64,000 nt of DNA, from positions 64,019 to 128,018 of the forward strand of contig JAYRIM010000023.1 of the NCBI GenBank assembly GCA_041906785.1. The letters run 5' to 3'. The notes beneath the pieces were generated by a model. It did no database searches, had not been told where the DNA came from, and was given only the letters and a program-made list of their open reading frames with translations. Both the position numbers and the translations under genes were made by a program. Within the stretch, counting starts at the first letter, position 1. Each line of letters opens with the position of its first letter. This stretch comes from Candidatus Levyibacteriota bacterium. Its GTDB lineage: Bacteria > Patescibacteriota > Microgenomatia > Levybacterales > UBA12049. Positions 842 to 62,253 of this stretch are shown piece after piece.

Positions 842-1978
842 TTACCAACTTGGAAGGAATTGTTTCACATTCTCTGCAGTGACACGAATAGGAGTAGAAG
901 CACCTTCGACAATTAATCTCGCAGCTTTACGACAAATACCAGATACTGTTCTTTCTAGGCTACGAATACCTGAATCATATCCTAATGGTCGGATGATTTG
1001 CATCCACAAATCCTCATCAATAGTAATATCGGTATCATTTAAGCCCATGTCGTCGCGAATACGTCTAAAAAGATAATTTTTTCCAATCGCCATTTTTTCT
1101 TCGTCAGTATATGAAGGCATTTGCAGTATTTGCATACGATCGAGAACAGCTGTTGAGACATTTGTGGTATTATTTCCTGTAGCAATAAATAGAACATTCG
1201 ACAGATCAAATGGATAGTCAATATAATGGTCTGTAAATGCTTTATTTTGTCCAGGATCTAAGAGTTCCAGTAATATACCCATAATATCCCCACGTGCGGC
1301 TTCTGTTACGCGATCAAGCTCATCAAGAAGAATAACAGGATTTCTGGTACCAGCATGAATGAGTTTTTTTATTACAGCACCTGGTTCTGCATCAGGAAAA
1401 GCTCGTGATTGTCCACGAATAACTCGCGAATCAGCCATTCCTCCGAACGGAATACGCTCAAATTGCCTACCAAGAGCTCTTGCAACGGAAATAGCTAATG
1501 TCGTTTTACCTGTACCAGCAAGTCCAACTAACATTAATACAGGCGCATGGCCAATAGATCTTCCTTTATTTCTTTGAAAGTTAAGAATAATTGTAGATAA
1601 ATATTCAAGAATCGCATTTTTAATATTTTCAATACCATAGTGATCCTCGTCGAGAACTTGTTTTGCTTTTTTGAGATCCAGAATATCTTGTGATTGTTTT
1701 TCCCAAGGCAAACTTGTTACCCAGTTAATATACGTCGAGGTACTTTCATATTCCGTAATATAGTTTGCGCTCATAAACCCTGATCCCTGTCGAATAAGCG
1801 CTAAACGAGCAACCCTATCAATAAGAATTTGTTTTATGTCTGCAGGCATTGGGGTTTGTTCAACTCTTTCGCCGAGTTTTCGTATCTGATCAGTAGAATT
1901 ATCAGTTAAACCTCCTTGTAATGGGGATGAAGCAGTAGTATCTTTTGGGGGAGATTGATCCATGGGTATATTATACAA
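842..1978 (-). CDS. Lon-family AAA+ ATPase module lacking both the N-terminal LON domain and the C-terminal serine protease domain
   Basis: LPWEKQSQDILDLKKAKQVLDEDHYGIENIKNAILEYL, then Walker A GLAGTGKTTLAISVARALGR, Walker B ILLDELDRV, and SGIRSLER (sensor-2). The ORF ends right after the AAA+ small domain (…ENVKQFLPSW*). No protease domain follows in any frame. Confidence 0.7.
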   Translation of the reverse strand: MYNIPMDQSPPKDTTASSPLQGGLTDNSTDQIRKLGERVEQTPMPADIKQILIDRVARLALIRQGSGFMSANYITEYESTSTYINWVTSLPWEKQSQDILDLKKAKQVLDEDHYGIENIKNAILEYLSTIILNFQRNKGRSIGHAPVLMLVGLAGTGKTTLAISVARALGRQFERIPFGGMADSRVIRGQSRAFPDAEPGAVIKKLIHAGTRNPVILLDELDRVTEAARGDIMGILLELLDPGQNKAFTDHYIDYPFDLSNVLFIATGNNTTNVSTAVLDRMQILQMPSYTDEEKMAIGKNYLFRRIRDDMGLNDTDITIDEDLWMQIIRPLGYDSGIRSLERTVSGICRKAARLIVEGASTPIRVTAENVKQFLPSW

Positions 1979-2123: not shown

Positions 2124-4490
2124 TCAATAGTGGGCTTTGCGGCCATATGATGGTTTTCGCTGCTGTGTTCTCTCACGCTGAAATTGTCTTGATAAAGGAT
2201 GTGCGCTGCGCATTCTATCATCTCGGTCAAATCCTCTTCTTTCACCACGATCAAAATTCTGTCGATCTCCTCTATCAAAACTTCTTCTTTCTCCTCGATC
2301 AAATCCTCTTCCTCGTCCTTGTGGTCGACTACTTCTTTCTGGGCGTTCTCTATTACCTGAATCTGACTCCCCAGAATCATCGAGTAACATAGTTAAATTA
2401 ATTCTTCCTTGGTCATCAATCTCAATAACTTTTACAGTCACTTTCTGACCTAAACTGACAACTTCTTCTGGATGGTTTACAAAACCTTTTGCCATTTTTG
2501 AAACATGAACCATGCCTTCTTTTCCTGGTAAGAATTCCACAAAAGCTCCAAAAGGCAAAATGCGTTTTACTTCACCTTCATATACCTCACCTGGTTTTAC
2601 TTCTTTTGTGATGCCTTGAACCATGTTTAAAGCACTCTGTACTGATTCTTCAGAAGTACCAGCAATAGTAACTGTACCATCATCTTCTACATCAACAGTT
2701 GCACCTGTCGTAGCGATAATATTTTTAATAATCTTTCCACCCGGACCGATCAGTTCACCAATCTTATCAACAGGAATTTGTAATAACTCTATCTTTGGTG
2801 CAAACTCAGAAACTTCATCACGTGATTGTGGAATAGCTTTTAACATTTTTTCAAGAATACTCATTCTTGCAACCCGAGCTCTTTCAAATATTTGTTCTAT
2901 CTGTTCAACTGTTAAACCTGGAATTTTGACATCAAGCTGTATAGCTGTTACACCTGTATCTGTTCCAGCCACTTTAAAGTCCATGTCACCTGAAAAATCT
3001 TCAAGACCGATGATATCTGTGAGCAATACATATTCTCCTTCTTTTGTGGATCCATGAGGATATGACATCATTCCTACAGAAATACCTGCAACTGGTTTCG
3101 TAATAGGTACTCCAGCATCCATTAATGCTAATGTCGAACCACATGTTGATGCCATTGATGTTGATCCGTTTGATGAAGTTACTTCAGAAACGAGGCGAAT
3201 TGTATAAGGGAATTTTTCTTTACTAGGTATAACGGCTTCGAGCGCACGTTCTGCAAGGGCACCATGCCCGATTTCACGTCGAGACGTAAAACCGACTCTC
3301 CCTGCTTCTCCTACAGAGTAAGGGGGCATTGAGTAATGATGGATATATCTTTTAGACTCTTCTCCTTCTGCTGACTCTATCAGCTGTTCCATTCTTGGGG
3401 ATCCGAGTGTAGCAATAGTAAGAACTTGTGTTAATCCTCTTTGAAATATCGCTGAGCCGTGTGTACGAGGGAGTACTCCTACCTGGATATCAATCTGACG
3501 AACTTCATCCATAGCACGACCATCAACTCTTTTATTCTTTTTAACAACATCAGAACGAATTCCTTGGAATAAGACATATTCCAATGCCTTTGCGATAATC
3601 TTAGAATCAATTTCACTTTCTGGGTTAGCCATTTTTTCCTGTTCATAAATTTTTTTGACTAGATCTTGTTCTTCTGTACCCCCGAACTCTTTATTTGCTT
3701 TCGCTTTTGCTAATGCCGTAACCTCATCTTTATATGCTTTTTCGATTCGCTTTGCCATTTCAGCCATCAGGGCATTTGGATAAACCTGTACCTTCTGTTG
3801 TCCAACTTTCCCAACCAAATCGATAATAAAATTCAAGACTTTGTCAGTTTCCTCATGTGCACGTTTAATCGCTTCAAGCATAATCTTTTCTGACACTTGT
3901 TTCGCGCCAGACTCAATCATGACTGTTTTTCCTTTTACCTGAGATACGACTAAATCTAAATCAGAATATGCCATTTCTGTGGCTGTAGGATTAATAATAT
4001 ATTGTCCTTCATCATTTTCACCACGAACATATCCTACGCGAACTGCTCCAATAGGGCCATTCCAAGGGATAGGAGATGTTGCTATTGCCGCTGACACTGC
4101 ATTTATTGCGAGGATATCTGGTGCATGTTCACCATCAACTGATAAAACAGTAACCATCACTTGTACTTCACGTTTAAATTCTTTTGGAAAAAGGGGTCTA
4201 ATTGAACGGTCTATTAAACGACCAATAAGGATAGCTTCGTCAGAAGGTCTGCCTTCACGTTTTACCCAACGACTTCCTTTTATACGCCCTCCAGCATACA
4301 AACGTTCGACATATTCAACTGAGAGAGGGAAATAATCGAGCTCTGTTTCTTTACCTAATACAACTGTAGCCAGAACCATGGTATCACCAATTCGTCCCAA
4401 TACAGAAGCTGTTGCTTGCGGTGCAAGCTTACCCGTTTCTAAGGTTAATGTTTTCCCTGCAAATTCTAACGTTTCTGAGGTCTTAGTCAT
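2124..4490 (-). CDS. pnp: Polynucleotide phosphorylase (PNPase) with an arginine-rich repetitive C-terminal tail
   Basis: Two RNase PH domains, KH and S1 domains across the full length. C-terminal ~80 aa is low complexity: GRGRGFDRGERRSFDRGDRQNFDRGERRGFDRDDR. Confidence 0.95.
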   Translation of the reverse strand: MTKTSETLEFAGKTLTLETGKLAPQATASVLGRIGDTMVLATVVLGKETELDYFPLSVEYVERLYAGGRIKGSRWVKREGRPSDEAILIGRLIDRSIRPLFPKEFKREVQVMVTVLSVDGEHAPDILAINAVSAAIATSPIPWNGPIGAVRVGYVRGENDEGQYIINPTATEMAYSDLDLVVSQVKGKTVMIESGAKQVSEKIMLEAIKRAHEETDKVLNFIIDLVGKVGQQKVQVYPNALMAEMAKRIEKAYKDEVTALAKAKANKEFGGTEEQDLVKKIYEQEKMANPESEIDSKIIAKALEYVLFQGIRSDVVKKNKRVDGRAMDEVRQIDIQVGVLPRTHGSAIFQRGLTQVLTIATLGSPRMEQLIESAEGEESKRYIHHYSMPPYSVGEAGRVGFTSRREIGHGALAERALEAVIPSKEKFPYTIRLVSEVTSSNGSTSMASTCGSTLALMDAGVPITKPVAGISVGMMSYPHGSTKEGEYVLLTDIIGLEDFSGDMDFKVAGTDTGVTAIQLDVKIPGLTVEQIEQIFERARVARMSILEKMLKAIPQSRDEVSEFAPKIELLQIPVDKIGELIGPGGKIIKNIIATTGATVDVEDDGTVTIAGTSEESVQSALNMVQGITKEVKPGEVYEGEVKRILPFGAFVEFLPGKEGMVHVSKMAKGFVNHPEEVVSLGQKVTVKVIEIDDQGRINLTMLLDDSGESDSGNRERPERSSRPQGRGRGFDRGERRSFDRGDRQNFDRGERRGFDRDDRMRSAHPLSRQFQRERTQQRKPSYGRKAHY

Positions 4491-4596: not shown

Positions 4597-4866
4597 TTAG
4601 TCTTTTAATCCAATTTTTTTTAATATTCCTGATGCTCGTTTATCGTCAACCTTCTTAAGAAAATTAACCAGTCTGCGTCTCTTCGCAATCATTGATAATA
4701 ATCCCCTTCTACTATGTGTATCATGTAAATGCTGCTTTAAATGCTCTGCAAGGCGATTTATTCTATGGGTCAATAATGCAATTTGAACTTCAGGACTTCC
4801 TGTATCTCCATCTACTGTCTGAAAATCTTTAATAATTTGTTGTTTTTGTGTTAGGCTCAATGGCAT
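4597..4866 (-). CDS. rpsO: 30S ribosomal protein S15
   Basis: 89 aa; LTHRINRLAEHLKQHLHDTHSRRGLLSMIAKRRRLVNFL is the canonical S15 signature. Sits immediately upstream of pnp, the classic rpsO-pnp arrangement. Confidence 0.95.
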   Translation of the reverse strand: MPLSLTQKQQIIKDFQTVDGDTGSPEVQIALLTHRINRLAEHLKQHLHDTHSRRGLLSMIAKRRRLVNFLKKVDDKRASGILKKIGLKD

Positions 4867-4931
4867 AGTCGTAATTATATCACAGAAAATCTGTTACCGG
4901 CAAGTAGGCAGACAGTTTAGCATATTTTTGC

Positions 4932-6065
4932 TTAAACGTTCGAAGATCCTTTATAGACTTTTGGCGTTAACCAATCAGTCGGAGGATTTATATCATCGAA
5001 ATTATTTTGCTGTTCCTGTGGTGGAAGAGTTACCTGCTGTAATTGTGGCTGTCTTTGCTGTACAGGCTGTTGTTGTGGTTGGGATTGCTGTTGATTTTGC
5101 TGAGCAGGTTGCTGCTGTTGGCGACGTTGATCAAACTGTGGTCTGCGATCCCTGTTATCATTTCTATCAGATTGACGTTGGTCGAATTGTCTTCTATCAC
5201 GATTATCTCGTTGCTGCTGAGACTGCTGTTGAGGTTGCTGTTGAACCACTGGGCGTTGTTGTTGAAAATTTCCTTGAGGTTGCGTCTGCGGTTGAGGTTG
5301 TCGCATTTGTTGTGTAGTTGTAGGCACTTGCTGAGTTCGTGAACGGACAGCTCCTTGTCTCATAAGAATACCTGCCATTTCAAAAGCTATGGGAGTTGTT
5401 CGTGGACTTTGGAAATTTTCTGTTCCATATGAAATACCATCAATAAGATTCTGAGCGATATCAACATCAAGTGGAGCTTTCAAGTCATTTAATACTTGAA
5501 CAATCTGTTCACTTACAGACGATGCTCGTGGATTTACAATAACAATATCGCCAAATCCTTGATTTTCTTGTTTATTATCGATGTTAACAAGTGTAACATT
5601 CTTTAACGCGTCAGGGCTAAATGCTGAATGAATATCTGCTAACCGTGGAGTACCAACCACAAAGAGTAAATCTAACTCACCATTTCCTCGGGTATAACGC
5701 ACATCTTGTTCACTGAATGTAAGGCCTTGGTCTCCAGCTTTAACGACAATATTCAGATACCCATTTTCGATCGTATATGATACTTTCTCGATGTCACCCT
5801 CACGATAGGGGAACGATACCACCAGATCAGCTCCTCCACCTTCATAACGAGTTTTTACTTTATCAACACCCACGAGGTTAGAGACTTCGACAATAGGTTC
5901 AGTAGCGGAAAGTACTGCAGTATTTTTACCCATAGCTTGGAGGGAGAGATAGAGAGAAAGAGCAGCAGCCATTTCATCAATTGAGGGCTCTTTACCCACT
6001 GCTACGGCTACTGATTTACTACGTTGTAGCGCTTCTTTTAGGCGCTGAAGTGTCGCATTGTCCAT
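4932..6065 (-). CDS. NrnA-like DHH/DHHA1-fold protein with degenerate catalytic motifs and a Gln/Pro/Arg-rich C-terminal tail
   Basis: Aligns to B. subtilis NrnA (LLFVVGTPRLADI ~ LVIVCDTANQERI; PRASSVSEQIVQVL ~ TSASSVSEMIYELY). DHH motif is IDNKQEN instead of IDHHPNE. The N-terminal DxD motif reads SID. No GGGH motif. Tail: QQQRDNRDRRQFDQRQSDRNDNRDRRPQFDQRRQQQQ… Occupies the infB/rpsO position where nrnA, rbfA and truB are often found. Confidence 0.6.
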   Translation of the reverse strand: MDNATLQRLKEALQRSKSVAVAVGKEPSIDEMAAALSLYLSLQAMGKNTAVLSATEPIVEVSNLVGVDKVKTRYEGGGADLVVSFPYREGDIEKVSYTIENGYLNIVVKAGDQGLTFSEQDVRYTRGNGELDLLFVVGTPRLADIHSAFSPDALKNVTLVNIDNKQENQGFGDIVIVNPRASSVSEQIVQVLNDLKAPLDVDIAQNLIDGISYGTENFQSPRTTPIAFEMAGILMRQGAVRSRTQQVPTTTQQMRQPQPQTQPQGNFQQQRPVVQQQPQQQSQQQRDNRDRRQFDQRQSDRNDNRDRRPQFDQRRQQQQPAQQNQQQSQPQQQPVQQRQPQLQQVTLPPQEQQNNFDDINPPTDWLTPKVYKGSSNV

Positions 6066-6090: not shown

Positions 6091-7551
6091 TTATGCGACT
6101 GATATTATCATATCTCCTATAGTAATGTCAAGCTGGTGAGACAAAACTATCCCTGCCTCACCTTTTGTTACTTTTGAAGTTACATTTTTACCTACTCTTA
6201 AGGATTGAATAGTAGTTTCTCCTATTACTGTGTCACCACGAAGAACACGTATTTTATCTCCACGAACGATTCTTCCTTCAATAATGGAAATTCCATAAGC
6301 AAATGTCTTTTCAAATGGAAACTTTGCAAGGATTTTTGCTTTTCCTAGTTCAGTCTCAAGCTGCATTTGTTTTTTACCTTCTATAACATCGGCTATCTCG
6401 TCAAGCATTTCATAGATAATCTGATAATTTTTAATTAATACCTTTTCAGCCAAGGCTAACCTTTGAACCTCGGGACGTATTTTTACATTAAAACTCAATG
6501 CTAGAGCACCTGTGGCTTTTGCCTGTAGAACGTCAGCCTCGGTTACCTCACCAGTTTTTTGTGTAACGATAGTCACTTCCTTCGGCAGTGCGGCTACAAT
6601 AGCCTCGAGTGCACCTTCAGTATCAGCTGCTAAAATAAGATAGAGCGTATCACCATCTTGAGGCTTATGATAGAGAACATCTTCTGGTTTTCTTTCAGCT
6701 TCCTTAGCTGAAACTGTAACTTCAGCTTGTTTGGGAGTCACTATGCTTCCAACAGGTAAAACATCAGGAGCGCCTAGAATTTCTACTCCTTCTCCTACTG
6801 AGGCTTTATCAATAGGTTTTCCAAGATAATTCAGTACTGTCCTTAACCTGAATGTTTTTCCTTCACATGATACTTCTTCTCGTGTATGTAAGGTTCCTTG
6901 CTTAATAATAATCGTAGATTTAGCACCAGCGCGTGGATCGAGCTTTGATTCAATAACAATAGCCTTCAAGGCAGCAGAAGAAGAAGCTTTTTGATGAACT
7001 CCCCGCAGTTCAGATACTAATAAAATAAGATCAAGTAATTCTTTCATATTCTCACCTTTTTTTGCAGATACTTCTATAACAGGAATATCGCCACCATATC
7101 CTTCAAGAAGTACATTTTCACGAAGGAGTTGTTGTTTCACTTTTTCTACGTTTTTCGTTGGTAAGTCACTCATAGTTAACACAACGATAATAGGAAGATT
7201 TGCTGATTGAAGTAATTTTATACTCTCTCGTGTCTGTGGCATTACACCATCGACAGCAGAAACAATCAATAATCCAATATCAGCAGCTTGTGCTCCACGA
7301 CTACGCATGTTAGTAAATGCTTCATGACCTGGAGTATCGATAAACGTTATACGTCTCTTTTTACCTTCGTATTCCACTTCAACAGAAGATGATCCAATTC
7401 CTTGTGTAATACCACCATACTCGCGTTGAGCAACTGAAGTTTTTCTTAGAGCATCTAAAAGAGTAGTTTTACCATGATCGACATGACCTAATACAGTTAC
7501 AACTGGAGGAAAATCCCAATTTGTTTTCTGCTCTATATGTGTATTCTGCAT
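6091..7551 (-). CDS. infB: Translation initiation factor IF-2, short form (G domain + domain II + C-terminal domain, no N-terminal extension)
   Basis: VVTVLGHVDHGKTTLLDALRKT, DTPGHEAF, NKxD-like TMSDL. 486 aa. Confidence 0.95.
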   Translation of the reverse strand: MQNTHIEQKTNWDFPPVVTVLGHVDHGKTTLLDALRKTSVAQREYGGITQGIGSSSVEVEYEGKKRRITFIDTPGHEAFTNMRSRGAQAADIGLLIVSAVDGVMPQTRESIKLLQSANLPIIVVLTMSDLPTKNVEKVKQQLLRENVLLEGYGGDIPVIEVSAKKGENMKELLDLILLVSELRGVHQKASSSAALKAIVIESKLDPRAGAKSTIIIKQGTLHTREEVSCEGKTFRLRTVLNYLGKPIDKASVGEGVEILGAPDVLPVGSIVTPKQAEVTVSAKEAERKPEDVLYHKPQDGDTLYLILAADTEGALEAIVAALPKEVTIVTQKTGEVTEADVLQAKATGALALSFNVKIRPEVQRLALAEKVLIKNYQIIYEMLDEIADVIEGKKQMQLETELGKAKILAKFPFEKTFAYGISIIEGRIVRGDKIRVLRGDTVIGETTIQSLRVGKNVTSKVTKGEAGIVLSHQLDITIGDMIISVA

Positions 7552-7698: not shown

Positions 7699-8919
7699 TT
7701 ACTTAGTCTCCTCAGTTGGCGTTTGCACATCATTCGAGGTTTCAACTGTTTCTTCAGGAGTCTCAACTGCTTCAGTAGTTTTTACTTCTTCGCTTGCCGT
7801 GGTCACATCTTGGGTATCATCTTGAGTTGTCTGCGATGATGAATCTGTTTGTACATCTGAAGATGTTGATTCCTTCGCTTCAGTTTCTTCAGCTGGCGCA
7901 GCGGCCTCCGCTTCTTTTGCTGCTCCGGGCTCCTCTTTTCCTTCAATCTCTATACGATATCCTGTTAATTTTGAAGCTATTCGAACATTTTGACCATCTT
8001 TTCCAATTGCCAATGATAATTCTTCTTTTGGAACTGAAACAACTGCAAGTTTTTCATCCTCTTTTAGCGTCACACTGATATTTTTCGCTGGGGACAATGC
8101 TTGTGTGATATATACTTTCGAATCTTCAGACCACTGGATGATATCAATCTTTTCAATGCCACCAAATTCTTGAATAATTGCTTGCACACGGACACCTTTT
8201 TGGCCAACACAACTTCCAACTGGATCAATTCCTTGCTGATTTGATGCAACGGCGATTTTCGTCCTATTTCCTGCTTCTCTCGCGATTGCTTTAACAATGA
8301 CACTACCTTGGGCAACTTCAGGTACTTCTCGACGGAATAATCCTTCAATAAGCCCTGCATGAGATCGAGAAACAACAATTTCTTCACCTTTTAATCCTTC
8401 TCTAATCTCCTTAAGATACACTGCAAATCGTTGATTTAAGTGATATTTCTCTTGGGAGATCTGCTCTGTCGGGGGCATAATAGCTTCTGTTTTTCCAATA
8501 TCAACAATAATATTTTGGCCAGCAAACCGTAGTACCATTCCATTGACGACTGTTCCAATTTTTACTCGATAATCTGAAAAAATTGCTTCTTTTTCCTTTT
8601 CACGAATTTTCTGCAAGATAACTTGTTTCGCAGTTTGCGCGGCAATTCTTCCAAATCCAGGAGGTGTTACATCTTCATCATTATGAAAGATTCTAGCTTC
8701 ACCTGTAGATGAATTAAGTTCTGCACGGTATTCTTCAACCTCAACTCCTGGATGATCCTTTCTATAAGCAGCGAGAATCGCGTTTTTTACAGTCTCTAAA
8801 ACAACATTTGGATCGACTCCTCGCTCGGAAGCAACCTGATTAAGAGCTAACACAAATTCTGATCTTTGTACAACTGGCATAGTAGGGTACAGTATAGCAA
8901 ATAAGCATGTTACGATCAA
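7699..8919 (-). CDS. nusA: Transcription termination/antitermination factor NusA with an acidic Thr/Glu-rich C-terminal tail
   Basis: N-terminal domain, S1 and two KH regions (GxxG: IGKDGQNVRIASKLTG). Likely true start at the internal MPVVQRSEF (about 8880). Tail AEETEAKESTSSDVQTDSSSQTTQDD…. Confidence 0.9.
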   Translation of the reverse strand: MIVTCLFAILYPTMPVVQRSEFVLALNQVASERGVDPNVVLETVKNAILAAYRKDHPGVEVEEYRAELNSSTGEARIFHNDEDVTPPGFGRIAAQTAKQVILQKIREKEKEAIFSDYRVKIGTVVNGMVLRFAGQNIIVDIGKTEAIMPPTEQISQEKYHLNQRFAVYLKEIREGLKGEEIVVSRSHAGLIEGLFRREVPEVAQGSVIVKAIAREAGNRTKIAVASNQQGIDPVGSCVGQKGVRVQAIIQEFGGIEKIDIIQWSEDSKVYITQALSPAKNISVTLKEDEKLAVVSVPKEELSLAIGKDGQNVRIASKLTGYRIEIEGKEEPGAAKEAEAAAPAEETEAKESTSSDVQTDSSSQTTQDDTQDVTTASEEVKTTEAVETPEETVETSNDVQTPTEETK

Positions 8920-8939: not shown

Positions 8940-9614
8940 CTATTTTTCCTTTTTAAATAACTTATATTGTTGAAGAAGAAGAAAAAGAGCTGGCAATAAC
9001 AGAAGATAGAGAAAACCTACCGAACTACTGTGTTTAACTATATATTTATATGTAACATCACTAAAATAATAGAGAGCGATATTTGGCAGCTCAGAAAGTG
9101 CTGTCGCAAAGAAAAATATTCTAAAATTAATCTTACTTAGCCCTGCGATATAACTAATGAAATCCATAATAGGCGCTGTTGTCAAACGAATTCCCAAAAA
9201 TGCTAGAAATTCTTTTTTCCTTGAAACCTTTTCTTCCCAGGCATGTAATTGTTGGAGAGGTACAAAACGTGAAACTAATGGTTTTCGATATACTCGAGCA
9301 ATCCAAAAAGCTATCGATGCACCGATAATAATTCCTAAAAATGCGAATATATAAGACCACAACCATCCATAAATAGGAATTAATAAAAATGATAATATAC
9401 CCCCTGGAATGGGAGGAATAACTACTGCGAGGATACGCCAAATAATTACAATGATGGGAGCGAGAATAACGTGCGCAATTGCAAAAGCCACGATTTGTTC
9501 TTGATTTGCAGGAAACCAAAAAAGAAAAAAAATAATAAGCAAAGAAGTTATGAGAAAAGATATATTAATAAGTCCTCGGGATTTCATAGTAGTATTATCG
9601 GAGAACAAAGGCAT
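8940..9614 (-). CDS. DedA/TVP38/TMEM64-family membrane protein
   Basis: Multi-TM protein with the VIPPIPGG motif characteristic of the DedA/SNARE-associated family. Start overlaps the stop of the upstream ClpB-like gene (TAATG). Confidence 0.65.
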   Translation of the reverse strand: MPLFSDNTTMKSRGLINISFLITSLLIIFFLFWFPANQEQIVAFAIAHVILAPIIVIIWRILAVVIPPIPGGILSFLLIPIYGWLWSYIFAFLGIIIGASIAFWIARVYRKPLVSRFVPLQQLHAWEEKVSRKKEFLAFLGIRLTTAPIMDFISYIAGLSKINFRIFFFATALSELPNIALYYFSDVTYKYIVKHSSSVGFLYLLLLPALFLLLQQYKLFKKEK

Positions 9615-12187
9615 TATTGTACAGCAACTATAATAGTATTCCCTTCATCAGTCGTCATCGTAAGGGTATTACCACGTTGTATCTCATCACGAAGTTTTTT
9701 CTGTGCAATAATATCCTCAACAGTGTCCTGAATATATCGTCGTAAAGGACGAGCACCGAACTGTTGATTAAAGCCTTCTTTCATAACTTTATTAAGAAGT
9801 CTATCATCGTACGAAAATGTTATATCCTGTTCGGCCAATCGCTTTTTAATACCATCTAACATAATTCGTGCTATGGAGCCCATTTCTGCTTCTCCTAAAG
9901 GCTTAAAGATAATAACATCGTCAAATCTATTCAATAATTCAGGTCTAAATAAACCCTTTTTCTGCAATTCATCAAGTAATCTATTCGAAAATTCATCTGT
10001 GACAGCAGAACCCTTTTCAATCTCCTCACGAATAAATTCTGCTCCCGCGTTTGATGTAGCAATAACAATACTGCTCGCAAAACTTACTGTTCGCCCTTTA
10101 TTATCTGTCAATCGTCCATCTTCAAGTACTTGCAAGAATAAATCAAGAATTTTAGGATGCGCTTTTTCAAATTCGTCAAGAAGTACTAAAGAAAATGGAT
10201 GATCTGCAATTTTATCTGTTAGTTCACCCCGCTCTTGTCCTTCACCAGGAGGAGCCCCAAGTAGTCTTTTTTCTCCTTCTATATCTGAATATTCACTCAT
10301 ATCAAGACGTATCATTTTATCTTCTCCACCGAAATAAAGTTCTGCTAACGCTTTCGCTGTTTCTGTTTTACCTACGCCTGTTGGGCCAAGGAAGAGGAAT
10401 GAGATAGGCCGTTTCATTGTGGTCATCCCCGCACGTAATCTTCGCATCGCTTCTGCTATAGCACGAATAGCATCCTCCTGTGCAATAACTCGCTTGTGCA
10501 TCAATTCTTCAAGGTGTAGCAGTATATCTTTTTCTTTCGCCGTGGGTTGGGATATAACAATGTGCGTTTTTTCTTGTATTGCGGTAACAATATCATCACC
10601 TCCAACAAATACTGTTTTCGTCTTACTAAACAAACCGCCAGCACCATGACTACGTGATGCAACAGTGTGGGAAACATCTTCTAAAACATTTACAGCACTT
10701 CCAGGTAATGCAGCTTCCTGGAAAAATCTATCGGCGTAATCTACTGCATTTTCAATTGCTTTGTAAGTCAACACAACTCTATTTTTTTCTTCAACTGCCG
10801 ATGCCCTTTCGAGAACCATTTTCATAGCTGTATGTTTATCTGGCTCTTCTAACTTAATAACAGTAAATGCTTCGAGCAATGAACTTTTTTCAATAAATGT
10901 TTTAAAATTACCTACCGTGACTGTCCCAATAACAGGCGTTTTTCCGGAAGTTAGATAAGGATATAGTGCACCAGATAAATCAATTTCGTAGGATGACGAT
11001 CCTGTAATGTTCTGTAATTCAGGAATGTATATCACTACATTTCCTGAGTGACTAACTTCTTCAATGATGGCTTGTAAACGACTTTCTAATTCTGCACGAT
11101 TTGCAGCGCCTGCGATGAGAGGACCTACCATAAGCTCAAGAACCTTAATATGAGGAACGCTTAATGATGTACTGTGAAGAAAGCTTTCTGTTGCCAATAA
11201 AGATACAAGATTTTCTCTACCACTACCTGGATCACCAACTAAGAGTATACTATTATTTTCTCGTTTAGAAAGAGTCTCAAGCATCTGTATAAATTCTTTT
11301 TCCCTACCAGTAATTTCTGGTTTCTTTTCAAATGCTTCATAAGAAAAATTTACAGTATATTTTTTCGTCTCATATGTCCATCCAGTTGTGAGTCCTTCAC
11401 CAATTCCACTACCATACATATGAACACGGCGTTTTTTCGGTTTTTCCTCATAAGGATACATATGTCTTGCCCAAGAAAGAATTTGCATAAGTTCTTCTTG
11501 TTTCAGTTGATGATTGAAAAGCAATTTGGTTTGTTGTTCTGTTAAAAAAAGATACGATCCGAATATATCAATTGAAGTTATATATGTTCCGCGAACACTT
11601 TTCGCTAGTTCGGCTGCATAGGTTATAACCTGTGTTAATGGAATATCTAGCAGCTGTATCGATTGCTTTTCAACTGGAATTTTATTCATTATGAATTGGA
11701 CTTGTTCATAATCCAGTAAGGAATATACAACTTGTTTTGTATTCTGATATACCAAAATTTTTTCTAATGCCTCTCGAGTCATCGATTCATACCAATTTTG
11801 ATCTTTATTATTTACTACTGAAATAACGGGTAAAACCTTTGCTATTTTATGCCTAAAGAAAAGCTCGATCTGTAAAGTAACAGAAAGGAAAAAAAGTGGA
11901 AGTTTTATATTTCCATGTTCACGAAATGTATTAAAAAACCAAACAGAAATGAAAAAAAGAACAACGACTCGTAATGTTCTCATAAGCGCTGTCTTATAAA
12001 AGTGATAAATCTTTGTATACGCCACCATATTTAAAAATGTATAAAAAGCTGAACGATAGTTACAACAGGCCAGGCCAGAAATAAAAGGAGAAATGCAATT
12101 TGAAATATTAGGATAACTGATAATAAAAGGAAACTGATAAGGATAAGTAATGTTTTTATACCTATTCCCATTCCTATTGAAAACCAA
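9614..12187 (-). CDS. Membrane-anchored ClpB/ClpC-like double-AAA+ protein with a degenerate first Walker A and no M-domain
   Basis: N-terminus from MRTLRVVVLFFISVWFF (probable start near 11983) has about 2 TM helices. NBD1 Walker A reads GDPGSGRE instead of GxxGxGKT. NBD2 is intact: GPTGVGKTETAKALAE, LVLLDEFEKAHP, sensor RPELLNRFDDVIIF. No IGF/LGF ClpP loop. Confidence 0.75.
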   Translation of the reverse strand: MVFNRNGNRYKNITYPYQFPFIISYPNISNCISPFISGLACCNYRSAFYTFLNMVAYTKIYHFYKTALMRTLRVVVLFFISVWFFNTFREHGNIKLPLFFLSVTLQIELFFRHKIAKVLPVISVVNNKDQNWYESMTREALEKILVYQNTKQVVYSLLDYEQVQFIMNKIPVEKQSIQLLDIPLTQVITYAAELAKSVRGTYITSIDIFGSYLFLTEQQTKLLFNHQLKQEELMQILSWARHMYPYEEKPKKRRVHMYGSGIGEGLTTGWTYETKKYTVNFSYEAFEKKPEITGREKEFIQMLETLSKRENNSILLVGDPGSGRENLVSLLATESFLHSTSLSVPHIKVLELMVGPLIAGAANRAELESRLQAIIEEVSHSGNVVIYIPELQNITGSSSYEIDLSGALYPYLTSGKTPVIGTVTVGNFKTFIEKSSLLEAFTVIKLEEPDKHTAMKMVLERASAVEEKNRVVLTYKAIENAVDYADRFFQEAALPGSAVNVLEDVSHTVASRSHGAGGLFSKTKTVFVGGDDIVTAIQEKTHIVISQPTAKEKDILLHLEELMHKRVIAQEDAIRAIAEAMRRLRAGMTTMKRPISFLFLGPTGVGKTETAKALAELYFGGEDKMIRLDMSEYSDIEGEKRLLGAPPGEGQERGELTDKIADHPFSLVLLDEFEKAHPKILDLFLQVLEDGRLTDNKGRTVSFASSIVIATSNAGAEFIREEIEKGSAVTDEFSNRLLDELQKKGLFRPELLNRFDDVIIFKPLGEAEMGSIARIMLDGIKKRLAEQDITFSYDDRLLNKVMKEGFNQQFGARPLRRYIQDTVEDIIAQKKLRDEIQRGNTLTMTTDEGNTIIVAVQ

Positions 12188-12996: not shown

Positions 12997-13321
12997 GGCT
13001 ATTTAGAAAAGAAGAAATAATGGAAAGAAGGACACTAAATAATAAAGCCCACCAAAAAGAGTTTACTCGAAATCCTTCAATAAGAAGGTCTGTAAGAGAA
13101 ATCATTAATGCATTGAGAACAAGCGCAAAAACACCCAATGTAACCAATGTTATGGGGAGTGTTAGGAAAAACAGAATTGGCTTAATTGAGGCGTTAATAA
13201 TGCCTAATACCAATGCAACAATTAAAGCAGTTACAAACGAATCAACATACACTCCTGGTAATAAATATGCCGCAACGAAAACAGCCATTCCACTTATAAA
13301 CCAGTTAATTAATATTTTCAT
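12983..13321 (-). CDS. DUF360 / phage-holin-4-superfamily small membrane protein
   Basis: 112 aa, about 3-4 TM, with GMAVFVAAYLLPGVYVDSFVTALIVALVLGIINASIKPIL matching the DUF360 (YvlD/YqxA-like) pattern. Its ATG overlaps the ClpC-NBD2 stop as ATGA. Confidence 0.6.
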   Translation of the reverse strand: MKILINWFISGMAVFVAAYLLPGVYVDSFVTALIVALVLGIINASIKPILFFLTLPITLVTLGVFALVLNALMISLTDLLIEGFRVNSFWWALLFSVLLSIISSFLNSLAKD

Positions 13322-14979
13322 GATGATTCATGTAATCCATCTACACCTGAAGCATTTATTTCCCCATTTTCTAGTACAGAAACATGAGCTTGTTCGTTCG
13401 CATAGTTTTGTGAGCCTAGACCTACTGTAGCACTTGTTCCTCCTGCCACATATGCTCCACCTGAAGCATAGTTTGGCGGCGGAGTACCTTGAATGAATTG
13501 ATTTGTAAATGATTGATTAGTTTGCACAGATGGCTCATCAGACGGATTTATAGAAGGTGTTGCTGTTGGGTGAGTCGAATCTGGAGACAAAACACTTAAA
13601 GGATCAAAAGATGTCGCTACTGTAGGCGCTGATTGGCCCGTCGAAGGAACTGTCTGCTGTCCATAAACATAAGGTTGCTGTGATAACTGTGGCGTTTGAG
13701 TACTAGAAACTTGAGGTTGAGTATGCTGATCAGGTTGGTCTGTTGTTGGCTGAACCGTGGGGTTGTTTGTCTCCAAAGTAGCTTGAGCTGGCTGTTTTCC
13801 ACCTTCAGGTTTTTTAAACAAGAATTGGTTTGTTCTCGTGTCGTAATCTATCACAATAGTATCTCCTTGAACAAATTGTTTCCCGATGATTTGCAGCGCT
13901 ATTGGATTTTCTATAGATGTCTGGATTAACCTGCGCAACGGACGAGCACCGTACATTGGGTCATAACCTTCTTGTGCAAGCTTATTTAATGCTCTATCGG
14001 TTACTTTTACTGCAAATCCTTGTTCTTTTAATAATTTTGCAGTTTTTTCAAGACCTCGTTTCGCAATACCTACCATATCAGATCTCTGCAGTGGTTTAAA
14101 AATAACAATATCATCATAACGATTAAGTAATTCTGGCCGGAAAAATTTCCGTAGTTCAGTATTAACGACTGTTGATAGTTCAGCAAAATCTTTTTCATAT
14201 TGTTCTTTTGATTTTTCTTTTTTCGCATCTTGTTCACCTAATTTTTCAGTGATCATACCACTACCTATATTAGATGTACAAATGACTATAGTGTTTTTAA
14301 AGGATATCGTATTTCCTTTATTATCAGTTAAACGTCCGTCTTCTAAAAGCTGTAACAGAATATTAAAAACATCAGGATGTGCTTTTTCAACTTCATCAAG
14401 AAGGACTATTGAATATGGTTTCGCTCGAACTGCTTCGGTTAATTGTCCACCTTCTTCATATCCTACATACCCAGGAGGAGCGCCTATTAACTTAGCCACT
14501 TCATGTTTTTCCATATACTCTGACATATCTAAACGAACCATTGCATCATCACGTCCGAATAAAATTTCAGCAAGAGTTTTTGCTAATTCTGTCTTTCCTG
14601 TTCCGGAAGGTCCTAAAAATATAAAAGAGGCAATAGGTCTCTGTCCGCTTGCTAAACCAATTCTGCCACGGCGTACTGCTTCTGCAACTTTAACCACTGC
14701 TTCTTCCTGATCAACAAGTCGAAGATGGATTCTATCTTCAAGTTGCAAGAGTTTTGCGCTTTCATCCTCTGTCAACTTAGAAATTGGTATCCCTGTCCAA
14801 CTACTTACCACATTTTCAACATCACGCTTTGTAACAGCCATGCTATTTTCAACAGGTTCTGGTGTAGTTTGCTTACTCGGTGTAGGTGTACCAGGAGCAG
14901 CAGAAACTGGCTGGACTTCTGTCGCTTGTTGTTTTTCTTCTTTTACATTTACTGTATTTTGGGTATTTTTATCGTTCAT
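13318..14979 (-). CDS. clpC: ClpC/ClpA-type chaperone, C-terminal half (NBD2/D2 AAA+ module) as a separate ORF with a Gln/Thr/Pro-rich C-terminal tail
   Basis: Begins MNDKNTQ…VTKRDVENVVSSWTGIPISKL (canonical D2 start). Walker A GPSGTGKTELAKTLAE, Walker B IVLLDEVEKAHPDVFNILLQLLEDGRLTD, sensor-2 RPELLNRYDDIVIFKPL. No [LIV]G[FL] ClpP-docking loop. Long PTVQPTTDQPDQHTQPQVSSTQTPQ tail. Confidence 0.85.
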   Translation of the reverse strand: MNDKNTQNTVNVKEEKQQATEVQPVSAAPGTPTPSKQTTPEPVENSMAVTKRDVENVVSSWTGIPISKLTEDESAKLLQLEDRIHLRLVDQEEAVVKVAEAVRRGRIGLASGQRPIASFIFLGPSGTGKTELAKTLAEILFGRDDAMVRLDMSEYMEKHEVAKLIGAPPGYVGYEEGGQLTEAVRAKPYSIVLLDEVEKAHPDVFNILLQLLEDGRLTDNKGNTISFKNTIVICTSNIGSGMITEKLGEQDAKKEKSKEQYEKDFAELSTVVNTELRKFFRPELLNRYDDIVIFKPLQRSDMVGIAKRGLEKTAKLLKEQGFAVKVTDRALNKLAQEGYDPMYGARPLRRLIQTSIENPIALQIIGKQFVQGDTIVIDYDTRTNQFLFKKPEGGKQPAQATLETNNPTVQPTTDQPDQHTQPQVSSTQTPQLSQQPYVYGQQTVPSTGQSAPTVATSFDPLSVLSPDSTHPTATPSINPSDEPSVQTNQSFTNQFIQGTPPPNYASGGAYVAGGTSATVGLGSQNYANEQAHVSVLENGEINASGVDGLHESS

Positions 14980-14981
14980 AT

Positions 14982-16628
14982 TTATACAGTTGGTGGTGGC
15001 GCAAAATCAGCAACTGTTGGCGCGCCATATCCTTGGATAGCACCTACTGGTCCATTTCCAATTTGTTCTTGCGCACTTGGTTCTGAGACACTCATCGGCG
15101 CACCTGGAGCAATTGACTCTTGCTCTGCCACCTCTTCTTTTGGTTTCTCTGTTTCTGTTTCTTTTTTATCAGAGCCAGGCTCAGTTTTAATTACTTCTAC
15201 TAATTCCTGCTGTGAATCTGTTTTATTTGAACCGATACGAGGAAGATGCGTTTCAGAACGGCCAAGTTTCACCCATGCAGCTGCTTCATCAAGTAAATCA
15301 ACAGCTTTATCAGGAAGATATCGCTCACCAATATATTTCTTAGATAATTTCACTGCTGCTTCAATTGTTGCATCGCTGATCGTAACACCATGGAACCGCT
15401 CATATTTAGACTTTAACACTTTTAACATCTCCATTGCTGCTTCTTCACTTGGCTCTTCAGCAAGCACAGGCTGGAATCGTCGCTCTAAGGCTTTATCTTT
15501 CTCAAAATTTTTTCTATATTCCATAGTAGTTGTCGCACCAATAATTTGCAATTGGCCACGAGCCAAATGAGGTTTAATTATATTTGACGCATTCATCGAA
15601 TCTCCACCGTCTCCCCCCGCACCCATAAGAATATGAATTTCATCAATAAAAAGAATAACTTGTCCAGCAGCAGCCATCGCTTCCTGGATGACAGTTCGTA
15701 ACCGTTCTTCAAATTCTCCACGATGACTCGCACCCGCAACAATAGATGATAAATCTAACTGAATAATCCGTTTATTAAGTAATTCTTTCGGTGCACTTCC
15801 AGCGACTATCGCTTGCGCTAATCCTTCTATAATGGCAGTTTTTCCTACACCTGCTTCTCCGATAATAATCGGGTTGTTTTTTGTTCTTCTGAGTAGGATA
15901 TGAACAAGTCTGTCAATCTCTTTATCTCTTCCGGCAATTGGATCTAGTTTACCTTCACGAGCTTGCTGGGTTAAATCAATACCAAACCGATCTAATACTG
16001 ACTTTTTCCCATATGCAGACCCATGGGTTTTGGCTAATTTATCCTGAACCTGTTCTTTCTGCATACCTTGTGTCTGTAATAAATTTGAAGTAGGTAACGT
16101 GTCTGAATATAAAGCTAATAATACATCCTCAGGTGTTATAAATGCGGATTCGCGGGATTTCGCATCTCGATACGCTTGTTCGAACACTTGTCTCGACTTA
16201 TCACTGAGGGTGGGCTGTCCCATAAATGATCCTGGTTGTTCTTTACTTTGAATTTCTCTGGTGACTTTTGCTGGATCAACAGAAAAATCTTCAAGTAATT
16301 TAAAAATATCTTCATCATAGAGTAAACCTATGAGAATCTGTTCAGGCTCAATAAAAGGTTGTCTAATTCTTTTCGTTTCCTCCTGTGCGTGTTGAAGAAC
16401 CTGTGTTGCTCGTTGATCTAAATGAGAAAGCGCTGACAAGTTTTGACGAAATGAAGCATTCATTTTAGAACCACCCATCTCTATCTGAGGATTCTGGGGT
16501 GGGGTATTGATGCCTCCACTACCGGACGATTGCATACCTGGCTGCTGTTGAGGGACACCTGCAGCCTGCGATTGCTGCATTGGTGGTGTTTCCTGTTTTT
16601 TAGATTGACTAAATAAATTACCAAACAT
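14982..16628 (-). CDS. clpC: ClpC/ClpA-type chaperone, N-terminal half (Q-rich extension + Clp-N repeats + NBD1/D1 AAA+ module) as a separate ORF
   Basis: Clp N-domain repeats, Walker [17 protein letters not shown], Walker [10 protein letters not shown], then [14 protein letters not shown]. It then runs into a disordered E/K/T/P-rich tail instead of an M-domain. Stop TAA at 14984..14982 is followed 2 nt later by the ATG of the NBD2 ORF (TAATATG). Confidence 0.85.
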
Positions 16629-16683: not shown

Positions 16684-17100
16684 TTAACCGAATCCAGGGA
16701 TTTTAAGAATATCTTGTGTGATAACTTCGATGAACAGAAATCCAAAAACAGCGAGAAATAATCCTATTAGCGCATACATAATATAACTTTTTCCATTACT
16801 TAACTGTTGTGGATTACCTCTAGAAGTCATGATTAAATATCCGCCTATAATGATAAATAATAAAGAAAGACCACCAACTAGTCCTAAGCCCCATTTGTAA
16901 TATGTCTCAACAAATGAACCGACATCTGTGGGAATACAACCAAGATCTGATTTCACGCAGTTATCTTCTGCCAATGCATACGGGAGAGTATTTTTATTCG
17001 TTAGAAAAAACGAGAGGAAAAATAGAAAAAATAAGCCACGTTTAAAGGCAGTCATATATTCATCGTAACAGAGGATAAACAGAATTACAACATTGCACAA
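16684..17100 (-). CDS. Small secreted 2-TM protein, VirB2/TrbC-pilin-like topology (tentative)
   Basis: Signal-peptide-like N-terminus (probable start MTAFKRGLFFLFFLSFFL… near 17055), AxA-type cleavage site (YALA|EDN), Cys-containing short mature N-terminus, then two hydrophobic helices with GG motifs. Assignment rests on topology only. Confidence 0.35.
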   Translation of the reverse strand: MCNVVILFILCYDEYMTAFKRGLFFLFFLSFFLTNKNTLPYALAEDNCVKSDLGCIPTDVGSFVETYYKWGLGLVGGLSLLFIIIGGYLIMTSRGNPQQLSNGKSYIMYALIGLFLAVFGFLFIEVITQDILKIPGFG

Positions 17101-61463: not shown

Positions 61464-61841
61464 CTAGCGTTTAGCGTCTAGATTATTATTCATTTTTTTA
61501 ATCATTGAATTCAACATACGTAAAACCTCGTCTAGTAATTGTTCTGCTTTCAAAAAATATTCATTCTCTGTTAGTTGAAGTTCTTTCGCAATAAGCATTT
61601 GTGTTTCTAGCTCAAGAGCAGATCCATATGATATCAGACATGCATGAATATATTCTTTTTTCGATCCTCTGCCATATCCTTCAGCAATATTTGATGGTAT
61701 AGAGACAGATGCTTTACGCATTTGTATGATAATGCCATACATCTCTGATTTTGGAAACTTTTCTGTTACTATATACACTTCTTTTACTAACTCTATAGAT
61801 TTTTTCCAAACAATTAATTCTTTATATGTTTTAATGTACAT
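61464..61841 (-). CDS. Four-helix-bundle protein (TIGR02436 family; '23S rRNA intervening-sequence protein'-like)
   Basis: YKELIVWKKSIELVKEVYIVTEKFPKSEMYGIIIQMRKASVSIPSNIAEGYGR…EYIHACLISYGSALELETQMLIAKEL matches this family's characteristic pattern. Confidence 0.75.
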   Translation of the reverse strand: MYIKTYKELIVWKKSIELVKEVYIVTEKFPKSEMYGIIIQMRKASVSIPSNIAEGYGRGSKKEYIHACLISYGSALELETQMLIAKELQLTENEYFLKAEQLLDEVLRMLNSMIKKMNNNLDAKR

Positions 61842-61950: not shown

Positions 61951-62253
61951 TTATTTAATCGATCTTTTAAATGACTTTCCTGCAGTAAAACCAGGTGTTT
62001 TTCTGGCTGGAAGTTGAATTCTTTCTCCAGTCTTTGGATTCCGTCCTGGTCGAGCTTTTTTCGGACGAAGACTAAATGTTCCAAATCCGGTTAATACTAC
62101 TTTCTCTCCTCGCTTTAAAGAATCTTGAACAGTTGAGAGAAACGTTTGGACGACATCACGCGTGGCTTTACTAGTAAGATTCGTTTTTTTCGCAACAACT
62201 TCAATAATATCGTTCTTAGTAATATGAATCACCCCCCAAAAAAGTCTGATCAA
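61951..62253 (-). CDS. hup: HU/IHF-family nucleoid-associated DNA-binding protein
   Basis: GFGTFSLRPKKARPGRNPKTGERIQLPARKTPGFTAGKSFK (HU beta-arm). The true start may be the internal GTG (MIHITKNDIIE…) just after a GGGGGG run. Confidence 0.85.
   Translation of the reverse strand: MIRLFWGVIHITKNDIIEVVAKKTNLTSKATRDVVQTFLSTVQDSLKRGEKVVLTGFGTFSLRPKKARPGRNPKTGERIQLPARKTPGFTAGKSFKRSIK

Follow-up and report, generated by a model that had tools for sequence, protein, structure and literature searches.

The locus

We analysed a window of 64,000 nucleotides from Candidatus Levyibacteriota bacterium (contig JAYRIM010000023.1, positions 64,019 to 128,018 of the forward strand), and the subject of this report is a minus-strand open reading frame (ORF) of 377 codons at 4932-6065, which carries the working name X. 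The folded part of X is homologous to the DHH domain of NrnA-type nanoRNases and pAp phosphatases, has lost most of the metal ligands of these enzymes together with their entire second domain, DHHA1, and belongs to a large family that follows infB, the gene of initiation factor IF2. An earlier reading of the DNA made without database searches (the sequence-only reading) had described X as a catalytically degenerate NrnA in the conserved position between infB and rpsO; the ORF listing confirms the frame, its strand and its length of 377 amino acids (aa). Loci and proteins of the family were drawn from GTDB genomes, metagenome loci and cluster representatives, and data on the host are those of the 64-kb window. 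A protein identical to X is present in public data (P0001).

On the minus strand the genes follow one another in the order nusA, infB, X, rpsO, pnp and a gene for a Lon-type AAA+ protein:

7699..8919, minus strand: nusA, first gene of the conserved nusA-infB-X block (Pfam; synteny)
6091..7551, minus strand: infB, encoding an IF2 of 486 aa that begins with the G domain; always the gene next upstream of X (Pfam and NCBIfam)
4932..6065, minus strand: X, whole ORF (377 aa and stop), with a DHH-like domain, a disordered tail and a C-terminal peptide (ORF listing)
4597..4866, minus strand: rpsO (S15), 3' of X in Levybacteria-type genomes and not in every subfamily (Pfam; synteny)
2124..4490, minus strand: pnp (PNPase) with an R/G/D-rich C-terminal extension (Pfam; sequence)
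842..1978, minus strand: Lon-type AAA+ protein (378 aa), 3' of pnp (Pfam)

X is separated from infB by 25 nt and from rpsO by 65 nt, with no gene in either gap, and the sequence AGGA lies 5 nt ahead of its start codon. A sequence scan found no terminator-like site on the minus strand between the genes of the run from nusA to the Lon-type gene.

A DHH domain without its DHHA1 partner

X is composed of a folded domain, which holds a family-specific insertion, followed by a long tether and a short terminal peptide:

5343..6065, minus strand: degenerate DHH-type domain, residues 1-241 (AlphaFold2, Foldseek, family profile)
5676..5828, minus strand: family-specific beta-rich insertion, residues 80-130 (conservation tables; model)
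4983..5342, minus strand: Q/R/P-rich disordered tether, residues 242-361 (confidence of the model; composition)
4944..4982, minus strand: conserved C-terminal peptide P-x-D-W-L-x-P-K-V-Y-K-G-S, residues 362-374 (conservation)

The AlphaFold2 model of X (m830761e19f31) has a predicted local distance difference test (pLDDT) score mostly above 90 over the domain, and a second model, of a homologue with a short tail, gave the same result. Foldseek searches with both models returned TM1595 of Thermotoga maritima, Rv2837c and MSMEG_2630 at E ~3e-13 with a probability of 1.00, ahead of Bacillus NrnA, GdpP and family II pyrophosphatases, and the superposition on 4ls9 has a root mean square deviation of 2.2 Å. 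At the sequence level, a profile built from 69 relatives matched NrnA-type chains of the PDB (S. aureus NrnA, TM1595, SH1221, MSMEG_2630 and Rv2837c) at E = 3e-10 to 5e-8, in the DHH domain only. The sequence of X alone matched PDB chains of NrnA at E ~1e-3 and the Pfam DHH family (PF01368) with 17.9 bits (E = 0.0039), under the gathering threshold of 28.1 bits; the same Pfam profile matched 86 of 103 relatives at E <= 0.01, the best of them at E = 1.2e-13. Since the matches of the family to profiles and to Pfam are strong, as are those of Foldseek, the homology of the domain with the DHH domain of NrnA-type enzymes is secure, even though the sequence of X itself fails the Pfam cut-off.

The second domain is entirely missing rather than degenerate. 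A Pfam scan for DHHA1 (PF02272) found no match in X or in any of the 103 relatives, the GGGH motif is absent from X when the sequence is read directly, and a check of the family revealed no hidden DHHA1 or GGGH elsewhere in X or in these relatives. Residues 242-377, where DHHA1 would stand, are predicted by AlphaFold2 to be disordered. These comparisons revise the claim that X aligns with NrnA along its length: homology is confined to residues ~1-241, and within them lies an insertion of about 50 residues that had not been mentioned. The claim that the segment PRASSVSEQIVQVL (residues 179-192) aligns with the ASSTSE segment of NrnA-type proteins was borne out.

Loss of the metal ligands

The metal ligands of Bacillus NrnA are D24, D26, D80 and D156 together with H20, H103 and H104, and the D80N/D156N mutant of the enzyme has no detectable activity (PMC9757072). 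Likewise, the D80N/D154N mutant of TM1595 is titled inactive in its PDB entries. We transferred the ligands of NrnA to X by HMMER alignments to TM1595 and counted the residues at each position in 444 near-full-length members of the family:

NrnA H20: G24 in X; G or P in most members
NrnA D24: S28 in X; S, T or N in 386 members, D in 17
NrnA D26: D30 in X; D in 444 of 444
NrnA D80: G138 in X; G in 301 members, D in 114, Y in 20
NrnA H103: N164 in X; N or R, never H
NrnA H104: K165 in X; K in 175 members, H in 146
NrnA D156: G214 in X; A in 352 members, G in 39, S in 33, never D
Asp of the DHH triad: D163 in X; D in 435 of 444

The corresponding sites in the window are as follows:

5976..5984, minus strand: motif I remnant S28-I29-D30 (canonical D-x-D), with G24 in place of the preceding ligand His (alignment to TM1595)
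5652..5654, minus strand: G138 at the position of the motif II Asp, NrnA D80 (alignment to the TM1595 D80N mutant chain)
5571..5579, minus strand: D163-N164-K165 in place of the DHH triad (sequence read; alignments)
5424..5426, minus strand: G214 at the position of the motif IV Asp, NrnA D156 (alignment to the TM1595 D154N chain)

A single member of the set of seven ligands (D30) is kept in X, along with the Asp of the triad (D163), and the two Asp residues whose change to Asn inactivates NrnA and TM1595 are not Asp in wild-type X (G138, G214). The triad reads DNK in 166 members of the family and DRH in 128, and the canonical DHH was found in 0 of 444. The three substitutions named in the sequence-only reading (DNK for DHH, SID for D-x-D, and the missing GGGH) were all recovered on reading the sequence, and the alignments to TM1595 confirmed the loss of ligands. 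Its statement that every catalytic signature is substituted was both too strong and too weak: most ligands are indeed replaced, but D30 and D163 are kept almost everywhere, and the disappearance of the whole DHHA1 domain is the more radical loss.

Consistent with these replacements, X very probably no longer carries out the two-metal hydrolysis of phosphodiesters. X has lost essential catalytic residues, among them those that correspond to D80 and D156, and is widely conserved and under purifying selection (see below); this agrees with the inactive NrnA homologue that had been proposed and would make X a pseudoenzyme, as far as inactivity can be judged from residues. Members of the family are annotated in public databases as 'hypothetical protein', 'DHH family phosphoesterase' or 'nanoRNase/pAp phosphatase'. 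The last two labels are very probably wrong and would falsely credit the genomes that carry them with the degradation of nanoRNA.

Gained parts: an insertion, a tether and a terminal peptide

The insertion adds about 50 residues between motifs I and II, which are 78 residues apart in X and 25 in TM1595 (~53 extra), and AlphaFold2 predicts four beta strands in it. It holds the most conserved stretch of X, DLVVSFPYxEGEIEKVSYTxExGxLNIVVKAG, and had no significant sequence match in the PDB.

The tether of X (residues 242-361) consists of 40% Q, 12% R and 12% P, as the Q/R-rich tail of the earlier description implied, and contains two RR(P)QFDQR repeats; its pLDDT is ~45-55 and the isoelectric point (pI) of the tail is 11.2. 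Across the family the tails range from 29 to 224 aa (median 84.5), are rich in Q and P, and have a median net charge of +2. Two long ORFs of 129 and 99 aa on the plus strand (4928-5342) lie opposite the tail; they mirror its Q-rich low-complexity coding and are unlikely to be genes.

The tether ends in a peptide with invariant columns P362, D364, W365, L366, P368, K369 and Y371. The family pattern [DE]W[LF]xPK[VI][YF]KG is present in at least 415 of the 444 members, and the exceptions are mostly near-variants. We found the peptide in no protein other than X in the window and in loci L001-L088, nor did it have a significant sequence match in the PDB. Neither AlphaFold2 model docks the peptide confidently in cis, and it stays undocked (pLDDT ~60) even in the homologue with a tail of 48 residues.

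The invariant nusA-infB-X block

We scanned GTDB genomes with Levybacteria-type patterns and metagenomes with the DRH subfamily, which yielded 161 confirmed loci and 258 loci, respectively; 80 of each were kept for neighbourhood counts. The gene directly 5' of X was infB in all 79 GTDB loci with room upstream and in all 74 metagenome loci with an upstream neighbour (153/153 in both scans), and nusA preceded infB in the GTDB loci wherever the contig extended. The stop codon of infB and the start of X in GTDB loci are separated by a median of 12 nt (range 0-91 nt), and nothing stood between the two genes in any locus examined. Furthermore, infB was upstream of X in four distant members (31-41% identity) that were checked singly.

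The downstream side is variable. In 54 of the Levybacteria-type GTDB loci rpsO follows X directly, and the others have variable, unrelated inserts; in the 20 inserts that were read, none resembled TruB or RbfA, and by eye they encode secreted proteins, TsaD, a methylase, a PIN protein and similar products. Loci of the DRH subfamily usually have rmuC and then a true recJ (DHH, DHHA1 and RecJ_OB) 3' of X, and not rpsO-pnp. In these loci a degenerate X and an intact DHH protein are found two genes apart (e.g., 6956-9768 of L128, 6932-9576 of L143, and most of loci L094-L173). The distant members have the arrangements infB-X-rpsO-pnp, infB-X-rmuC (with infB and X overlapping by 4 nt) and infB-X-rpoBC. 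Because infB is always upstream while the downstream genes differ, the invariant block is nusA-infB-X and does not include the rpsO-pnp side. The infB half of the conserved infB-rpsO position claimed earlier is thus upheld, and the rpsO half is not.

Some of the neighbours in the window have unusual features of their own. IF2 aligns to positions 84-575 of the 587-position TIGR00487 and has no IF2_N match, so that the N-terminal region typical of most bacterial IF2 is absent. PNPase carries, after its S1 domain, an extension of ~80 aa that is rich in R, G and D and contains FDRG(E/D)R repeats, loosely like the RR(P)QFDQR repeats of the tail of X. The Lon-like protein (842-1978) combines an AAA+ module with a Lon lid domain but lacks the protease domain, and it adjoins pnp in many related Levybacteria loci.

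Family size, distribution and selection

A word-indexed search with X found 1102 relatives. The exhaustive search of 1.84 billion cluster representatives (50% identity) returned 3883 matches at E <= 1e-3, of which 1823 reached E <= 1e-10 and 205 reached E <= 1e-30. The DNK type, to which X of the window belongs, is found in Levybacteria, and the DRH type in Roizman- and Woesebacteria and in one Howlettbacteria record; in the NCBI taxonomy, Levy- and Roizmanbacteria both belong to the Microgenomates group of Patescibacteria. X therefore represents a large Microgenomates family (Levy-, Roizman- and Woesebacteria) and is not the oddity of a single genome. What had been taken for the local reduction of one operon is instead a family of class-wide distribution. 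Note that many records of metagenome-assembled genomes with typical Levybacteria nusA-infB-X-rpsO-pnp loci (L006-L085) are titled 'uncultured Gammaproteobacteria bacterium', and a few are titled Methylomirabilota, Limnocylindrales, Lysobacterales or Sulfotelmatobacter; by their look these are placeholder names or mislabelled bins.

The reading frame of X is intact, and hundreds of lineages keep its domain, with identities as low as 30%. Compared with its counterpart in L006, the closest relative, the domain of X has 0.13 nonsynonymous substitutions per site (dN) and 1.6 synonymous substitutions per site (dS), a dN/dS of ~0.08, and the value for infB in the same comparison is 0.07; dS is saturated in more distant pairs. 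The identities of the X domain and of IF2 in six comparisons were 81/80, 73/71, 68/67, 59/58, 59/59 and 62/58%. With a dN/dS near that of infB and identities that track those of IF2, X is under constraint comparable to that of an essential translation factor. Such strong purifying selection fits a protein that was repurposed, as the sequence-only reading proposed, and is not decaying.

Absence of rbfA, truB and other nanoRNases from the window

The absence of rbfA and truB noted earlier holds for the operon and for the 64-kb window. Six-frame motif scans of the window found no second X, no other DHH/DHHA1 protein, and no Orn, TruB or RbfA. Pfam searches found none of these proteins among the small and medium ORFs of the window, run as concatenated polyproteins, the larger ORFs having been recognised by eye only, and tblastn of the window with X, RecJ and TruB from related loci found no second X, RecJ or TruB. 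No truB was found near X in the window or in any Levybacteria locus. One Roizmanbacteria-type contig does carry truB (TruB_N, 8643-9446 of L089) about 5 kb 3' of X; therefore truB has not been generally lost from genomes that bear X.

A survey of ribosome biogenesis credits Patescibacteria with roughly half of the usual ribosome-assembly factors. It reports that der, era and rbfA were lost, and obgE retained, in Dojkabacteria, WWE3 and Microgenomatia, with era regained in part of the Microgenomatia; it mentions no DHH or NrnA protein (PMC12641178). How Patescibacteria manage with this reduced set is an open question (PMC12641178).

Probable descent from the NrnA' lineage and related architectures

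The closest known counterparts of X belong to the NrnA' clade, which is defined by its neighbours infB, rbfA and nusA and in which MSMEG_2630 and Rv2837c are co-transcribed with infB and rbfA (PMC4081065). These proteins, Rv2837c (CnpB) of Mycobacterium tuberculosis and MSMEG_2630 of M. smegmatis, are the best structural matches to the domain of X and share its neighbourhood. Given this shared infB neighbourhood and the top structural matches, the simplest reading is that X probably descends from the infB-linked NrnA' lineage. Foldseek puts Rv2837c and MSMEG_2630 first; the sequence profile scores S. aureus NrnA and TM1595 slightly higher. In contrast to the NrnA' proteins, X has neither DHHA1 nor GGGH, most of its metal ligands are replaced, and no rbfA stands between it and infB; it has instead the conserved insertion of ~50 residues, the disordered Q/P/R-rich tail and the conserved C-terminal peptide.

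The fold of the DHH domain is also shared with NrnA of B. subtilis and S. aureus (Pde2) and the pApA phosphodiesterase TM1595, and the ASSxSE segment and an xTxxF remnant of motif IV are recognisable in X. However, those proteins are two-domain, two-metal enzymes, and X lacks the substrate-binding domain. The slot that X occupies, directly after infB, is that of RbfA in most bacteria. RbfA is a small KH-type protein, and X, with its DHH fold, is unrelated to it and three times larger; the RbfA domain (PF02033) has no match in X, whose only Pfam match is DHH.

Other members of the DHH superfamily have lost their catalytic residues. Eukaryotic Cdc45 and inactive archaeal RecJ-like subunits of the Cdc45-MCM-GINS (CMG) complex serve a structural or scaffold role in the replicative helicase. 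They belong to the RecJ-like rather than the NrnA-like branch and keep both domains, and we know of none with a tether and terminal peptide or with a link to infB. The layout of X is that of SSB and FtsZ, in which a low-complexity linker, very variable in length, joins a conserved globular domain to a short C-terminal peptide that is likewise conserved; X has no homology with either, and the likeness is one of architecture only. We found no description in the literature of a bacterial NrnA-type pseudoenzyme or of the X family. If our reading is true, X would be an example of a bacterial NrnA-type DHH protein turned non-enzyme, in parallel with Cdc45 and the inactive RecJ homologues.

Possible role of X

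We propose that X is a non-catalytic descendant of the NrnA' lineage that serves as a tethered adaptor, either at the initiation of translation or when the small ribosomal subunit goes through its late maturation, a proposal to which we give an even chance of being correct. The acidic folded domain, probably through its new insertion, would bind one conserved macromolecular partner, and the tethered C-terminal peptide might dock on a second partner in trans, by analogy with the domain-linker-tip layout of SSB and FtsZ. The most likely partners would be IF2 or the small ribosomal subunit. Since conservation of the neighbourhood is limited to its nusA-infB side and the class reportedly lacks rbfA, era and der, we tentatively assign the partners to translation initiation or late 30S maturation, an assignment that we hold somewhat more likely to be wrong than right. 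Such a role would matter in Microgenomates, with their reported loss of rbfA, era and der and an IF2 that lacks its N-terminal region. The folded domain of X has a pI of 4.7, and the median net charge of the domain in the family is -8. Of the 'RNA-binding or scaffold' role suggested earlier, a general RNA binder is thus argued against by the acidity of the domain.

Several observations weigh against this proposal. What ties X to translation or to the ribosome is gene order alone, and the adjacency to infB may simply have been inherited from the NrnA' ancestor and be silent on present function. The missing cis-docking of the peptide in AlphaFold2 models of the monomer is weak evidence for a partner in trans. 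Furthermore, hardly any member has lost D30 or D163, and conservation remains good around the old active site. In the DRH subfamily 114 members still have the Asp of motif II and 146 the second His, and some ligand binding or residual chemistry is therefore possible.

A second account would place X in RNA decay, as the adaptor of a degradosome-like hub that brings in or arranges PNPase, RNase J or RNase Y, with the R/Q-rich tail of X on RNA and its peptide on a ribonuclease. We consider this account rather unlikely. The ancestor NrnA belongs to RNA turnover, rpsO-pnp lies 3' of X in Levybacteria-type genomes with a gene for RNase J nearby, and in the window the basic tail with its RR(P)QFDQR repeats stands next to a PNPase with an R-rich extension of FDRG repeats. 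However, the link to pnp is not conserved, being replaced by rmuC-recJ in Roizman- and Woesebacteria-type loci and by rpoBC in another member, while infB is always upstream. The richness in R is also no trait of the family, in which the tails are mostly Q and P.

A narrower form of the translation proposal has X as a Microgenomates-specific factor of translation or ribosome biogenesis, derived from a nanoRNase, that would bind IF2 or the immature 30S subunit through the insertion and the peptide and make up functionally for the lost RbfA, and perhaps also for Era or for the N-terminal region that IF2 lacks. In this specific form the proposal is unlikely to be right. X is a testable candidate for a lineage-specific part of the translation machinery, as it shows IF2-like conservation, always adjoins infB, and is spread over the Microgenomates lineages sampled, the Levybacteria-type pattern by itself accounting for at least 161 GTDB species.

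A non-canonical site in X, the alternative named in the sequence-only reading, is conceivable and in our view doubtful: D30 and D163, joined in the DRH subfamily by D138 and H165, would bind metal with a phosphate or nucleotide, which would make X a weak phosphoesterase or a non-hydrolysing sensor of pAp or nanoRNA. The retention of the two Asp residues (444/444 and 435/444) agrees with such a site, as does that of residues of the old cleft that are invariant or nearly so (N161, N168, S182-S183-x-S-E186, T215, N217 and F218). The D80N/D156N mutant of NrnA still binds dinucleotides (PMC9757072), and the Prokaryotic Genome Annotation Pipeline (PGAP) names members of the DRH type 'DHH family phosphoesterase'. 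Against this, most ligands are gone in X, no member has either the Asp of motif IV or the first His of the triad, and the lost DHHA1 domain took with it GGGH and the RxRxR element of substrate recognition. In addition, the strongest conservation lies in the new insertion and not in the cleft.

Finally, we rejected a functionless, decaying relic or pseudogene of nrnA, kept only by its position in the infB operon, as highly improbable: the lost catalytic residues and DHHA1 and the low-complexity tail would fit it, but dN/dS is like that of infB, the frame is intact, conservation is family-wide, and the new insertion and C-terminal peptide are more conserved than the ancestral core.

Other features of the window

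A consensus scan gave one further site upstream of X:

6104..6131, minus strand: sigma-70-like site TTGACA-16-GATAAT in the 3' end of infB, upstream of X (11/12 match to the consensus, and a consensus match alone)

No tRNA gene was found in the 64-kb window by a tRNA scan, and no Rfam family reached its gathering threshold there, which includes the absence of an annotated rpsO or pnp leader element. Upstream of nusA, two adjoining minus-strand ORFs appear by eye to be the halves of a ClpB-type chaperone: 14982-16628 corresponds to the N-terminal and first ATPase part, and 13318-14979 to the second ATPase part with a long low-complexity tail. A related genome also has a split ClpB-like version (592 + 210 aa). 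The gene that precedes nusA, 9614-12187 on the minus strand, is by eye a third Clp-like ORF of 857 aa. Elsewhere on the minus strand, 16684-17100 encodes a small membrane protein that resembles a type IV secretion pilin, 61464-61841 a 23S rRNA-intervening-sequence protein (PF05635), and 61951-62253 an HU-type DNA-binding protein.

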